Source of the DNA: a virus
Strand: one strand, 5' to 3'
UHGV virus genome: UHGV-0136485
DNA: 12,555 bases
Under the pieces are notes generated by a model. That model made no database searches and had not been told where the DNA came from. It saw nothing but the letters and a program-made list of their open reading frames with translations. The translations under genes and the position numbers were made by a program. This document shows, piece by piece, positions 5,983 through 11,880 of this stretch. Within the stretch, counting starts at the first letter, position 1, and each line of letters begins with the position of its first letter.

Positions 5983-6427
5983 GCTGGTTATTTCTGCTTT
6001 CCTCCTGACTTTATTCGGTTCTCTCGTCTGGTCAGCTAATCATTACCACAATAAAGCCATTGAATACAAAAAACAGCGCGACGAAAACGCTATGGCATTA
6101 GATTCGGCTATGGCGACGATCTCTGATATGCAGAAGCGTCAACGTGACGTAGCAGAACTCGATGCCAGATATACAAAGGAGCTTGCTGATGCTAACGCGA
6201 CTATCGAAAGTCTCCGTGCTGATGTTTCTGCTGGTCGTAAGCGCCTGCAAGTCGCCGCCACCTGTGCAAAGTCAACGACCGGAGCCAGCAGCATGGGCGA
6301 TGGAGAAAGCCCAAGACTTACAGCAGATGCTGAACTCAATTATTACCGTCTCCGAAGTGGAATCGACAGGATAACCGCGCAGGTTAACTACCTGCAGGAG
6401 TACATCAGGACTCAGTGCCTGAAATAA
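5966..6427 (+). CDS. Rz: Spanin inner-membrane subunit Rz (i-spanin)
   Basis: ATG at 5966 overlaps the end of R. N-terminal transmembrane segment (LVISAFLLTLFGSLVW), then a coiled-coil-like periplasmic domain. 153 aa as in lambda Rz, but clearly diverged from it. Confidence 0.85.
   Translation: MKLRYKLVISAFLLTLFGSLVWSANHYHNKAIEYKKQRDENAMALDSAMATISDMQKRQRDVAELDARYTKELADANATIESLRADVSAGRKRLQVAATCAKSTTGASSMGDGESPRLTADAELNYYRLRSGIDRITAQVNYLQEYIRTQCLK
6189..6374 (+). CDS. Rz1: Spanin outer-membrane lipoprotein subunit Rz1 (o-spanin), embedded in Rz in the +1 frame
   Basis: 61-aa product MLTRLSKVSVLMFLLVVSAC-KSPPPVQSQRPEP...: signal peptide with lipobox (VVSAC) and a Pro-rich mature part. Lies wholly inside Rz, as Rz1 does in lambda. 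Confidence 0.7.
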   Translation: MLTRLSKVSVLMFLLVVSACKSPPPVQSQRPEPAAWAMEKAQDLQQMLNSIITVSEVESTG

Positions 6428-7735: not shown

Positions 7736-8233
7736 ATGGCAAAGCTCACCGACAAACAAGAGCTGTTTGCCCATCCGGATGATGTGTATGTCGGAGAGTG
7801 TGTGATTTATACCGGCTACATAAATAAGCGAGGGTATGGGCAGAAGCACATTTCACGAAAGCCGCACTACGCACATCGAATCGCATACTGCGAAGCTAAC
7901 GGAATTTCGCTAGATAGCATCAAGGGCCTGGTTGTTAGGCATAAATGCGATAATCCATCATGCGTGAATCCTGACCATCTGATTATAGGTACTGTCGCTG
8001 ACAATAATCGTGACAGGTCAAGGCGAGGCAGAAACTCATACCCTGACCGTTCAGGTGAAAAGAACGGAATGGCGAAATTAAAAGAGTGCGATGTCATCTG
8101 CATTCGCCTCGAGTATGTGCGCGGGAGTGTAGGTAATGGGCTTAGGTCTTTAGCAAAGAGATATGGCGTATCCACTACCATGATTGCTGACATCGTTAAT
8201 CATAGAAATTGGAGCAATGTTTCGGAGGTGTGA
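7736..8233 (+). CDS. HNH endonuclease (HNH_3-type) with a C-terminal helix-turn-helix-like region
   Basis: Motifs HYAHRIAY...VVRHKCDNPSCVNPDHLIIGTVADNNRD are typical of phage HNH nucleases. GGAG lies 9 nt upstream of the ATG. Sits immediately upstream of the terminase genes. Confidence 0.85.
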   Translation: MAKLTDKQELFAHPDDVYVGECVIYTGYINKRGYGQKHISRKPHYAHRIAYCEANGISLDSIKGLVVRHKCDNPSCVNPDHLIIGTVADNNRDRSRRGRNSYPDRSGEKNGMAKLKECDVICIRLEYVRGSVGNGLRSLAKRYGVSTTMIADIVNHRNWSNVSEV

Positions 8234-8234
8234 T

Positions 8235-8789
8235 TTGAAACAGCTCACACCTAAGCAGGAACTGTTCTGCAGGGAATATTTAAAAGATTTAAACGCCACT
8301 CAGGCAGCTATCAGGGCGGGCTACAGCGAGAAAACTGCTCGCGCCACTGGTAGCGAGAACCTGTCAAAACCTGACATAGCAGATCGCATTGCTGAGCTAA
8401 AGGCTGAACGCAATGAAGAGGTAGGTATAGACGCTGCCTATGTATTGCGACGGCTGACTGAAATCGATCAGATGGACGTGCTGGATATCCTGCTTGCCAA
8501 TGGCGAACTGAAGCCGATTAAAGACTGGCCTAAGGTGTGGCGTACAACGCTATCAGGAATGGATGTCGTCGAGATGGCATCAGCAGATAGTGCTGCTCTC
8601 CTGAAGAAAATCAAATGGCCTGATAAGGTTAAAAACCTTGAGTTGCTCGGGCGTCATGTTTCTGTTCAGGCGTTTAAAGACAACGTCAAAAATGAAGTGA
8701 CTGGTGCTGACGGAGGACCAGTCAGAACAGAAATTACCAACTTAACGCCGGAGCAGGCTGCAGAGGCGTATAGAAAAATGATGGGCTAA
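8235..8789 (+). CDS. Terminase small subunit (Terminase_2-like)
   Basis: N-terminus [48 protein letters not shown] fits the terminase small-subunit DNA-binding domain. Start is uncertain: TTG 8235 has a GGAGG 6 nt upstream; in-frame ATGs at 8217 and 8184 would overlap the HNH gene by 17 or 50 nt. Confidence 0.8.
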
Positions 8790-8791
8790 GT

Positions 8792-10414
8792 ATGCCGTTA
8801 CCATTCCCCTTCGATTTTAAACATCCTGATTACCAGATGGTTTTTGAATGGCGGATGGAACGCCTACAGCGCATTCGCCAGAATCCTGAAATATTGCCTG
8901 CACTAAAACAGTTTTACCGAACCAATCCGGCTCAGTTCATCATCGACTGGGGCATGACAACGGACCCGCGTAATATTGATTATGGCCTGCCGGTGACCAT
9001 TCCGTTTTTACTCTTCCCTAAGCAGGAGGAGTGGATCCACTGGATTATGGAACGCTGGGGTAATCGGGAGAATGGTATTACCGAAAAATCCCGTGAAATG
9101 GGGCTCAGTTGGACCGCGATCGGGCTGGCATGCTCGCTTTGTCTCTTCAACAAAGAAATGGTTATCGGTTTCGGCTCCCGTAAAGAGGAATACGTCGACA
9201 GCACCGGTGACCCGAAAGCATTGTTCTGGAAGGCGCGCAAGTTCGTGGAAACACTACCTGTAGAGTTTCGTGGTTCGTGGGACGAGAAGAAGCATGCGCC
9301 GTATATGCGCGTTGAGTTTCCAGATACTGGTGCCGTTATCAAAGGCGAGGCTGGCGACAATATCGGACGTGGTGACCGTACCACGCTTTATCTGGTTGAT
9401 GAGGCTGCATTCCTTCAGCGTCCTCTGCTGATTGATGCGGCGTTGTCACAAACGACGCGTTGCCGTATTGACCTGAGTTCAGTTAACGGCATGGCGAACC
9501 CGTTCGCTCAGAAGCGTCATGGCGGGAAGATACCGGTATTCACATTCCACTGGCGGGATGATCCTCGCAAGGATGAAGAGTGGTATCGCAGGGAATGCGA
9601 GAAAATCGATAATCCGGTGGTGGTGGCACAGGAACTTGATCTGAACTACAGCGCATCAGCGGAAGGCGTCCTGATTCCATCCGAATGGGTACAGGCTGCC
9701 GTTGATGCGCATATCAAACTGGGTATCCAGCCAACAGGCAAACGACTTGGCGCGATGGATGTCGCCGACGAAGGCAGGGACAAAAATGCCTTTTCCACCC
9801 GTCACGGCTTCCTCCTGGAGAACGTGCGGGAATGGTCTGGTGTGGGCAGCGACATTTATCAGTCCGTCGAGAAGGTTTTCGGCTTTTGCGAACAGGACAA
9901 CCTCGAAGAGTTTCGCTTTGACGAGGACGGGCTGGGCGCTGGCGTTCGCGGCGATGCACGCGCTATCAACGAACTGCGTAACGCTGCGCGCCGACCGTCA
10001 ATACTCGCCACACCGTTTCGAGGTAGTGGCGCGGTATTTGATCCGGACGACGAAGCGGTGCGCGGTGACAACGGACAGGCCGCCCGCCTGAACAAGGACT
10101 TCTTCGCTAACGCCAAAGCCCAGAGCTGGTGGCGGTTACGTAAACTTTTTCAGAATACCTGGCGCGCCGTGGTTGAAGGTATGGATTACAACCCGGACGA
10201 AATCATCTCAATCAGCAGTAGCATGGCACTCAAAGATAAACTCATCATCGAGCTTTCGCAGCCGACCTATTCCATTAATGGTGTGGGAAAAATCGTTATT
10301 GATAAACAGCCTGATGGAACCCGGTCGCCAAACCTTGCCGACTCGGTGATGATCAGCTACGCGCCAATGAATTCAGCCCTGAACATCTGGGAGCTGCTAG
10401 GGAGACAGGCCTGA
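8792..10414 (+). CDS. Terminase large subunit (ATPase/nuclease), 540 aa
   Basis: Position directly after the small subunit and typical size. Deviant P-loop-like KSREMGLS (compare lambda gpA-type KSxxxGxS) and Walker B-like LYLVDEAAF. Assignment is by context and motifs. Confidence 0.8.
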
Positions 10415-11880
10415 TGGCACGAAACAAACAAGCCCTGCGGAGAACTGCGCAGGCCACCGCTGATGGCTATGAGAACTTTGTCGCCCGCGTGGGAATGCAG
10501 ACGCCTAACCAGCACTCAGCATCGACCTACCGGGCTAACTTCACCAGCCGCAACCGCATGCTGGTGGAATGGTCCTATCGTTCGTCCTGGATCATCGGCG
10601 AAGCGGTCGACGCTATCCCGGATGATATGACCCGCAAAGGCATTCGCATCACTTCGGAAATTGATGCAAAAGATCGTGGCATTCTCGAATCACAACTGGA
10701 TGAGTTGCAAATCTGGGATGCGCTGAACGACGTGCTGAAATGGTCTCGCCTCTACGGCGGCGCGGTCGGCTTCATCATGATCGAGGGGCAGGCACCAATG
10801 ACCCCGCTGCGGCTCGAAACCATTGGAGAAGGCAAGTTTAAGGGCATTCTCCCGCTCGACCGCTGGATGATTAACCCGGTCCTGACCCGCCGCATTAAAG
10901 AGATGGGGCCAGATCTCGGCAAACCTGAGTTTTACGACGTGGTGACCACTGCAACGGGCATCCCGGCCTGGCGCATCCATCACAGCCGCCTGATTCGCTT
11001 CGACGGGGTGACGCTGCCATTCCAGCAGAAGATGACCGAAAACGAATGGGGAATGTCGGTTGTAGAGCGTATCTGGGATCGGCTTACTGCGTTCGACAGC
11101 GCCACTGTCGGCGCGGCGCAGCTGGTCTACAAAGCGCATTTGCGTACCTACAGCGTGGAGAAGCTACGCGAGCTTATCGCACTTGGTGGTCCTGCGTATG
11201 AAGCGTTGCTGAAGAATATCGACCTGATTCGACAGTTCCAGAGCAATGAAGGCATGACGCTCATGGACTCGCGGGATAAGTTCGAAACCCACCAGTACAG
11301 CTTTAGTGGTCTGGATGACATCCTTTCACAGTTTGCAGAACAGATTAGTGGCGCTGTTGGTATCCCGCTGGTGCGCCTTTTCGGGCAGTCCCCGAAAGGC
11401 TTCTCTACCGGTGACGCAGACCTCGCCAACTATTACGACCGGGTGAGCTCGTTGCAGGAACGCCGCTTACGGCTGCCGATGCGTCGGATACTGGACATCA
11501 TGCATCGTTCGGAGCTTGGCAAGCCGCTGCCGGACGATTTCACGTTTGAGTTTAACCCGCTCTGGCAAATGTCTGACGTTGACCGCTCAACGGTGGCCGT
11601 AAATACCACCACCGCAATCAGCACCGCGCTGGGCGACGGATTGATGACGCGTAAGGCGGCAATGACCGACCTACGCGAAAACTCTGATGTCACCGGCATC
11701 GGGGCATCTATTACCGACGAGGATATCGAGAATGCCGAAGACGAAGCGCCGCCAGGCATCGGCGAACTTGACGACAAACCGCCAGAGCCGCCAGGCGGAG
11801 ATCCGATATCGAACGAGCCTACGGCAGATAGCGCGGGCGGTCGGAGACATCGTAAATGGTCGCTACGATGGTTCAAATGA
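10414..11880 (+). CDS. Portal protein (DUF1073-like), 488 aa
   Basis: ATG overlaps the terminase large-subunit stop (TGATGG). Size and position after terminase fit a portal. Acidic/Pro-rich C-terminal tail (DEDIENAEDEAPPGIGELDDKPPEPPGGD). Confidence 0.75.
   Translation: MARNKQALRRTAQATADGYENFVARVGMQTPNQHSASTYRANFTSRNRMLVEWSYRSSWIIGEAVDAIPDDMTRKGIRITSEIDAKDRGILESQLDELQIWDALNDVLKWSRLYGGAVGFIMIEGQAPMTPLRLETIGEGKFKGILPLDRWMINPVLTRRIKEMGPDLGKPEFYDVVTTATGIPAWRIHHSRLIRFDGVTLPFQQKMTENEWGMSVVERIWDRLTAFDSATVGAAQLVYKAHLRTYSVEKLRELIALGGPAYEALLKNIDLIRQFQSNEGMTLMDSRDKFETHQYSFSGLDDILSQFAEQISGAVGIPLVRLFGQSPKGFSTGDADLANYYDRVSSLQERRLRLPMRRILDIMHRSELGKPLPDDFTFEFNPLWQMSDVDRSTVAVNTTTAISTALGDGLMTRKAAMTDLRENSDVTGIGASITDEDIENAEDEAPPGIGELDDKPPEPPGGDPISNEPTADSAGGRRHRKWSLRWFK

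Follow-up and report, generated by a model that had tools for sequence, protein, structure and literature searches.

The window analyzed here, a stretch of 12,555 nt of viral DNA (UHGV virus genome UHGV-0136485), carries a gene for a portal protein followed by a gene for a MuF-like head morphogenesis/minor capsid protein, and the two appear to overlap by 149 nt on the same strand in different reading frames. We estimate the probability at about 0.85 that this overlap is genuine and conserved, with portal read to the TGA at 11878-11880 and MuF translated independently from the ATG at 11732. An earlier note on this DNA had offered three explanations without ranking them, namely genuine dual coding, a sequencing indel with an earlier end of portal, and a programmed frameshift giving a portal-MuF fusion. 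The conservation of the frames, the diversity at the codon positions, and the simulations described below support the first of these, and the evidence is against the other two.

Geometry of the overlap and the start of MuF

The coordinates of the features are collected in Table 1. The codons of MuF begin one base after those of portal, so that MuF occupies the +1 frame, and the third frame contains stops in this region. The MuF frame is open from 11666, following a stop at 11663-11665, and offers ATGs at 11687 and 11732, which correspond to overlaps of 194 and 149 nt, respectively. The list of open reading frames (ORFs) and their translations agree with the earlier note on the range of 149-194 nt, on a MuF frame open at 11687, and on a portal frame that continues to 11880. 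On its way to the TGA the portal frame passes through NAEDEAPPGIGELDDKPPEPPGGDPISNEPTADSAGGRRHRKWSLRWFK; the tail is rich in Pro, Asp, and Gly, the stretch past ~11790 includes ...GDPISNEPTADSAGGR, and the C-terminal end is the basic-aromatic RRHRKWSLRWFK. At 11731-11760 the acidic portal linker NAEDEAPP, encoded by GAN codons, reads in the +1 frame as the basic MuF leader MPKTKRRQ, and each frame partly determines the amino acid composition of the other protein's end.

The Shine-Dalgarno (SD)-like sequence and the ATG proposed for MuF are both built out of portal codons for the conserved residues T-D-E-D-I-x-(N/D)-A. The sequence preceding the ATG, GACGAGGAT, is invariant in the 16 close relatives that make up the window clade, except for GAT in place of GAC in one locus (L015) and AAC in place of GAC in two others (L016/L017). 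In a survey of in-frame start codons, the AGGA 8 nt before the aligned ATG was present in the window clade as well as in most loci of a GZ7-like clade, which comprises 32 Enterobacterales loci with ~51% MuF identity to the window clade, and the overlap measures 149 nt, or 152 nt when the portal tail has one extra codon, in most loci of both enterobacterial clades. The exceptions include five Photorhabdus loci (L057, L058, L060, L063, and L075), in which a TTG aligns with this ATG and an ATG lies 9 nt before it. The aligned ATG is the sole start candidate upstream of the conserved MuF motif in L039, L040, and L051, and an in-frame stop lies just upstream of it in L011, L012, L013, L014, L019, L029, and others; the stop is one or two codons before the ATG in yong1 and in a number of copies from E. 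coli, Shimwellia, and Pantoea. The ATG at 11687 was also considered as the MuF start and is excluded, since a stop separates its equivalent from that of 11732 in relatives (yong1, L010-L014, and L019). It has no SD and is not conserved, and its 272-aa product is absent from the protein collection; the exact 257-aa product read from 11732 has already been called in a public assembly. Given an overlap, MuF very likely starts at exactly 11732, and the conserved SD and ATG together with the start-codon survey bear out the earlier note, which had named this the best start.

The N-terminal motif of MuF places the beginning of its coding sequence inside portal by a separate line of evidence. A tblastn search of phage genomes with the 257-aa MuF returned 424 records, and relatives at 25-51% identity align from MuF residue 19-22, which corresponds to 11786-11795 and lies upstream of the portal stop. 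The motif E-x-x-Y-x-x-x-L starts at 11798, inside the overlap, and its longer form, E-x-x-Y-x-x-x-L-x-x-[IV]A, occurs throughout the family. The motif region of the window, AEIRYRTSLRQIARAVGDIV, aligns with Klebsiella GZ7, Acinetobacter Ab105-1phi, Burkholderia Bups phi1, and Klebsiella phage KB2; in KB2, MuF is a stand-alone gene that begins MSRQTELNYYRQLKQVAR, and in Bups phi1 the annotated portal/MuF overlap is only 4 nt, yet the motif is shared. Since the motif is common to non-overlapping and stand-alone homologues, MuF coding starts before 11798, and an overlap of at least 83 nt that is genuine and translated in both frames is very probable. The earlier note had left room for a MuF orthologue that begins only after 11880, which is contradicted by the position of the motif upstream of the portal stop. 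The records of SEN34, yong1, vB_EcoM-689R2, and E. coli E2348/69 do shorten MuF to ~202 aa or less with a start after the portal stop, and 202-aa calls are present in the protein cluster. An arrangement of this kind, with no overlap at all, is nevertheless extremely improbable: the conserved motif upstream of the portal stop aligns with that of non-overlapping and stand-alone homologues, the codon-position diversity in 11786-11877 follows the MuF frame, and at the position equivalent to the SEN34 start the window has ATT (11897), which is not a start codon.

Public MuF calls use at least four starts and give products of 257, 245, 243, and 202 aa, of which the 202-aa version, like shorter ones, does not contain the conserved N-terminal motif. 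Long overlaps are already found in public records, with 164 nt in GZ7 and, from the Prokaryotic Genome Annotation Pipeline (PGAP), 110 nt in E. coli Rb-23 and 00_3230. A literature search found no paper describing the portal/MuF overlap and no paper on Hafnia phage yong1, and the SEN34 paper makes no mention of mass spectrometry or gene overlap. The comparison exposes an annotation problem, in that several phage records cut the conserved MuF N-terminal motif to avoid the overlap.

Conservation and selection in the two frames

In 76 of ~90 related loci, ranging from Enterobacterales to Acinetobacter and Burkholderiales, MuF is at portal frame +1 with an overlap. The portal alignment is conserved family-wide to ...ITDEDIxxAEDE (~11745), where a Pro/Gly/Asp-rich linker follows, and it extends to the stop codon in the relatives, with a terminal ...DS...LRWF(K/KR/TGKR/TGQR) across all Enterobacterales; this runs counter to the possibility, raised in the earlier note, that portal normally ends before 11730. 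An artificial frame extension created by a sequencing or assembly indel has nothing in its favor other than that long co-directional overlaps are rare a priori (PMC2478687). It is rejected, since 76 independent loci, sequenced as genomes or phage isolates in many laboratories, share the frame structure and the place at which portal stops. The relatives found include 339 prophage copies in E. coli.

Outside the Enterobacterales the portal tail takes other forms. In Acinetobacter, Pseudomonas, and Dyella the tail is short and acidic and the overlap is ~30-110 nt, the Burkholderiales tail ends ...WLSAWRS, and a +2 frame relation with a short overlap or none is seen in three loci, those of Bups phi1, P. 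putida, and Xanthobacter. Because the MuF motif is universal and the portal tail past the linker is lineage-specific, we infer that MuF is the older reading in the 3' two-thirds of the overlap and that portal was later extended at its 3' end, by overprinting, across this ancestral MuF N terminus. Past ...AEDEAPP the portal tail would be a C-terminal addition peculiar to the lineage and probably disordered, which has since acquired weaker purifying selection of its own. Six loci from Pandoraea, Cupriavidus, and Burkholderia (L026, L028, L041, L042, L071, and L072) have long overlaps with a different portal tail, the Trp-rich and basic ...GQWLSAWRS(RR..), which may be a second, independent portal extension over the MuF N terminus. 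Tandem duplication of the overlap as the route by which Bups phi1 became un-overlapped was rejected, as its portal-tail DNA in the other frames shows no MuF-like sequence. Individual changes were seen in two further loci. In the E. coli E2348/69 prophage (L010, 1957-1959), TGG->TAG shortens the portal tail by 7 residues, and the same base change converts G to R in MuF (IVNGRY to IVNRRY); this may be a natural test of the dispensability of the tail or a decaying prophage. In Apirhabdus apintestini (L020, CP138906.1, ~2650-2700) the MuF frame is split by a shift of about one base near ...EIITPW, which could be a pseudogene or an assembly error.

Nucleotide diversity (π) was compared by codon position in 15 distinct sequences of the window clade. 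Portal position 3 has a π of 0.33 in the portal-only region (373/436 sites variable), and MuF position 3 a π of 0.34 in the MuF-only region (180/206). In the whole overlap the value for portal position 3, which is MuF position 2, falls to 0.099 (18/49 variable; Fisher p=6.6e-13 versus portal only), and in 11786-11877 it is 0.05 (7/31). In the same 3' part, MuF position 3 (portal position 1) has a π of 0.205 (15/30; p=8.5e-6 versus MuF only), and MuF positions 1/2/3 give.042/.050/.205 there compared with.087/.040/.340 downstream. The first 54 nt of the overlap (11732-11785) lean to the portal frame, with 0.184 at portal position 3 and 0.099 at MuF position 3. In the DNA alignment the three-base periodic variation ends at 11732 and returns right after 11880; within the overlap ~11790-11850 is almost invariant, and variation peaks in 11745-11790. 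The codon-position pattern recurs in the GZ7 clade. An RNA element behind the conserved bases of 11790-11850 was considered and rejected, as there was no Rfam match and the folding energies were ordinary, and no internal promoter or terminator was found on the + strand.

Substitution events per site in the window clade amount to 1.75-1.86 for the synonymous baseline outside the overlap. Within the overlap they are 0.83 for changes that are nonsynonymous in portal and synonymous in MuF, 0.46 for changes that are synonymous in portal and nonsynonymous in MuF, and 0.27 for changes that are nonsynonymous in both. MuF-synonymous changes are thus ~2-fold fewer in the overlap (30 events/36 sites versus 254/145), and MuF itself is under strong purifying selection there, with ω of ~0.15-0.3. 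By these counts both frames are under purifying selection, the MuF N terminus strongly and the portal tail weakly but detectably.

The portal frame was further examined by simulation, in which the MuF segment from E23 to the portal stop was held fixed and synonymous codons were redrawn from each locus's own codon usage for 35 diverged enterobacterial loci, or 34 loci in a repeat run. The portal frame was stop-free in 34/35 of the observed loci, with portal ending one codon earlier in the remaining one, whereas the simulations gave a stop-free frame in 16% of cases on average. Compared with the window tail, the portal-frame identity was 12.3/27 observed versus 5.8 simulated, with p<0.05 in 34/34 loci, these per-locus values not being independent because the compared loci are phylogenetically related. 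Three control MuF segments outside the overlap gave 8.4/6.3, 4.2/5.5, and 5.8/5.6 (observed/simulated), and since the controls show no excess, shared ancestry of synonymous sites does not explain the portal-frame identity. The maintenance of an open portal frame across many diverged genomes is by this comparison far beyond chance. The same results bear on the possibility that the portal tail past ~11790 is functionless read-through, open by chance and hitch-hiking on the constraint on MuF. For one sequence alone a 49-codon open run in the portal frame has p ~0.07, at the 5.4% stop density of that frame downstream, and a functionless tail would also be in keeping with its variation in length and sequence by lineage, including the naturally 7-aa-shorter form of E2348/69, and with a ratio of doubly nonsynonymous to portal-synonymous, MuF-nonsynonymous changes (NN/SN) that is near 1. 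However, the stop-free portal frame, an identity twice that simulated with no excess in the controls, the depletion of MuF-synonymous changes, and the LRWF ending kept across Enterobacterales make read-through unlikely.

Several points weigh against the overlap as proposed here. The portal tail is weakly constrained, with ω of ~0.5-0.7 relative to the synonymous baseline and an NN/SN ratio of 0.6-0.86, and it is labile, as is evident from the shorter, acidic tails in Acinetobacter, Pseudomonas, and Dyella, the different tail in Burkholderiales, and the truncation in E2348/69. The relatedness of the simulated loci has to be counted as well, although the contrast with the controls is still clear, and the idea that the overlap sets the MuF:portal stoichiometry is purely conjectural. 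Finally, the exact MuF start was deduced, and PGAP prefers TTG or ATG at the 11768/11771-equivalents, with products of 245 and 243 aa. In that case the overlap would be real but shorter, at 110-113 nt, with MuF read from TTG 11768 or from ATG 11771 of the E. coli variants. The two PGAP products are called more often than any other in the protein cluster, the 110-nt version is annotated in E. coli Rb-23 and 00_3230, and the first 18 MuF residues are poorly conserved, with π of.184 at MuF position 2 in 11732-11785. On the other side, TTG 11768 has no SD and is not conserved, being CTG followed by ATG in the E. coli variants and absent in the GZ7 clade, and both enterobacterial clades retain the 11732-equivalent ATG with its AGGA, the only start available in three loci. 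In addition, phrog_324 aligns from MuF residue 5, and the MuF of Bups phi1 (251 aa), which has no long overlap, possesses a leader of similar length, so that we consider the shorter overlap unlikely and retain 11732 as the start.

Proposed translation of MuF from within portal

The start of MuF at 11732 is 146 nt upstream of the portal stop codon, a distance outside the short overlaps of translational coupling, and reinitiation after portal termination would therefore not reach it. We propose that MuF would be initiated independently on the polycistronic late mRNA, within a region that is translated in another frame, by means of the internal GAGGA embedded in the portal D-E-D codons. Ribosomes elongating through portal would compete with initiation of MuF and, more speculatively, their passage might unfold and transiently occlude the MuF start site. 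Such an arrangement would favor a low output of MuF compared with the 12 subunits of the portal. This agrees with SPP1 gp7, a MuF homologue that is reported to bind the portal and to be present at 1-2 copies per capsid (PMC5576092); low copy number in virions and portal binding are known for SPP1 gp7 only. A regulatory role is suggested, in that the synthesis of MuF may depend on the translation of portal and be restricted by it.

A programmed +1 (or -2) ribosomal frameshift in the overlap, yielding a portal-MuF fusion, would account differently for the same geometry. MuF is +1 relative to portal in nearly all relatives, profile positions 524-708 of phrog_2662 (717 aa, annotated portal) match MuF residues 72-248, and the reported binding of SPP1 gp7 to the portal would also suit a fusion (PMC5576092). 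However, the segment in which a shift would join both conserved parts, 11745-11790, is the most variable one, and MuF is served by a conserved SD and ATG of its own, often closely preceded by an in-frame stop. Common descent, with indels limited to multiples of three, accounts for the conserved +1 relation. No conserved +1 slippery site (CCC-N, UUU-N, or CUU-UGA type) was seen by eye in the portal codons of 11732-11880 or in the alignment, and candidates such as CTT-GAC and CGG-AGA vary between close relatives. Folding gave no stimulatory RNA structure, with z-scores of 0.15 and 0.95 that are like shuffled sequence, and a permissive Rfam search gave no matches at E<=1 and no frameshift element. 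We consider this third explanation of the earlier note very improbable. It is likewise quite improbable that a minority of portal ribosomes would shift +1 and the resulting fusion subunit would co-assemble in the dodecamer, thereby fixing 1-2 MuF at the portal vertex; if true, frameshifting would yield here what other phages appear to encode as a single portal+MuF protein (phrog_2662). In a milder and wholly conjectural version, the LRWF portal tail and the embedded MuF start would together be a device that sets the MuF:portal ratio.

Genomic setting and known overlapping genes

The window contains a lambdoid-type prophage late region that includes, besides the terminase, portal, and MuF-like genes, a DnaB-like helicase, NinG, a phosphoesterase, antiterminator Q, Rz, a KilA-N protein, and an HNH endonuclease. 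The portal gene sits directly 3' of the large terminase gene, whose ORF had no Pfam match in the scan of the window proteins. The portal protein matches PF06381 Phage_portal_3 (E=2.9e-105, 352 bits versus a cut-off of 33.8), TIGR01555 (248.9 versus a cut-off of 196.25), and phrog_146 'portal protein' (E=6e-174, spanning residues 3-488). Its relatives with solved dodecamer structures include the Pam3 portal 8hds (E=6.7e-36), E217 gp19, and others, and these matches span residues 15-451, excluding the tail. MuF matches PF04233 Phage_Mu_F (E=1.3e-17, 64.9 bits versus a cut-off of 29.6), TIGR01641 (42.1 versus a cut-off of 39.65), and phrog_324 (E=1.3e-90, residues 5-255), with no PDB sequence match at E<=0.01. 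MuF genes adjoin the portal gene on its 3' side (Jamet et al. 2017, PMC5576092), and the gene described here has this portal-adjacent position, but its start falls within portal.

Further observations concern gene calling and naming. The HNH endonuclease gene (7736-8233) lies immediately 5' of TerS, and the longest TerS ORF (from TTG 8184 to 8789) overlaps it by 50 nt; TerS is annotated from the 8217-equivalent in relatives, and this overlap is probably an effect of ORF calling. Some E. coli portal homologues in RefSeq carry the PGAP label 'anti-CBASS protein Acb1 family protein' instead of DUF1073/portal, which looks like a naming problem of the PF06381 family. The 90%-identity protein cluster that contains portal (488/489 aa) also holds many 540-aa TerL proteins and has a TerL protein as its representative, which is probably a clustering artefact, possibly caused by an ORF that was fused or wrongly called across the 1-nt junction of TerL and portal.

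Table 1. Positions of the portal/MuF overlap, its proposed signals, and the surrounding genes in the window
Feature	Positions	Strand	Remarks
Proposed dual-coding overlap, 149 nt	11732..11880	+	portal residues 440-488 and stop codon; MuF residues 1-50
3' part of overlap	11786..11877	+	MuF N-terminal helix-like motif AEIRYRTSLRQIARAVGDIVNGRYDGS shares DNA with portal tail GDPISNEPTADSAGGRRHRKWSLRWFK; lowest nucleotide variation
SD-like GAGGA for MuF	11719..11723	+	within portal codons GAC-GAG-GAT (D-E-D of conserved motif ITDEDIxNA); AGGA core 8 nt before ATG
Predicted MuF start ATG	11732..11734	+	made from portal codons aAT-Gcc (N-A); without variation in the 16 window-clade sequences
Upstream in-frame ATG, rejected as MuF start	11687..11689	+	without SD; stops downstream in relatives
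Portal stop codon TGA	11878..11880	+	position kept, or one codon off, in the window clade
Portal gene, 488 aa	10414..11880	+	ORF and translation; PF06381/DUF1073, TIGR01555 family
MuF-like head morphogenesis/minor capsid gene, 257 aa	11732..12505	+	PF04233, TIGR01641, phrog_324; +1 frame versus portal
Longest MuF-frame ORF, 272 aa	11687..12505	+	from ORF list
TerS	8184/8217-8789	+	PF03592
TerL, 540 aa	8792-10414	+	annotated as terminase large subunit in relatives SEN34, 689R2, and yong1

Overlapping genes that arise through overprinting are classic in viruses (e.g. phiX174-type). The portal/MuF overlap resembles them in its two same-strand frames, with a MuF N terminus that would be ancestral and a portal tail that is lineage-restricted, of low complexity, and likely disordered, as well as in the reduced synonymous variation within the overlap. 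It differs in that the ends of two known structural genes overlap and no new gene is created, the younger frame being a C-terminal extension. The Rz/Rz1 spanin genes of lambdoid phages also overlap on the same strand in the +1 frame, with both products needed, but Rz1 is wholly embedded in Rz, whereas the portal/MuF overlap is terminal. The window itself appears to contain such a pair: the Rz gene (PF03245; 5933-6427, +) encloses a +1-frame ORF (6162-6374, 70 aa) with a lipobox-like LVVSAC and a Pro-rich stretch that looks like an Rz1-type o-spanin, as recognized solely from its position, frame, and lipobox. It would be a second long out-of-frame overlap in the window, for which the earlier note had given the other overlaps as 1-8 nt. 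Short coupling overlaps (ATGA, TGATG; e.g. TerL/portal at 10414) also involve adjacent same-strand genes of one morphogenesis operon, but at 149 nt MuF needs an internal ribosome-binding site of its own. phrog_2662 suggests that portal and MuF functions can join in one protein; unlike it, portal and MuF here occupy two frames with a stop and a separate start, and no sign of a fused product was found.

None of the co-directional overlaps >60 bp in the 338 genomes surveyed by Palleja et al. 2008 (PMC2478687) was judged real, and they were attributed to annotation errors; the longest accepted case in that work, holD/rimI, measures 32-56 bp. The portal/MuF overlap is like holD/rimI in being terminal, co-directional, conserved in Enterobacteria, and backed by the alignment of both protein ends, but it is 149 bp long, and as a prophage overlap it would be an exception to the >60 bp rule. 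The understanding of phage assembly is unchanged by it; its use lies in providing a long co-directional case and an annotation correction, and it offers a clean test case for dual-coding detection methods and for the origin of disordered tails by overprinting. The overlap is implicitly present in the databases already, and compared with the systems above its kind is known and its length is unusual.

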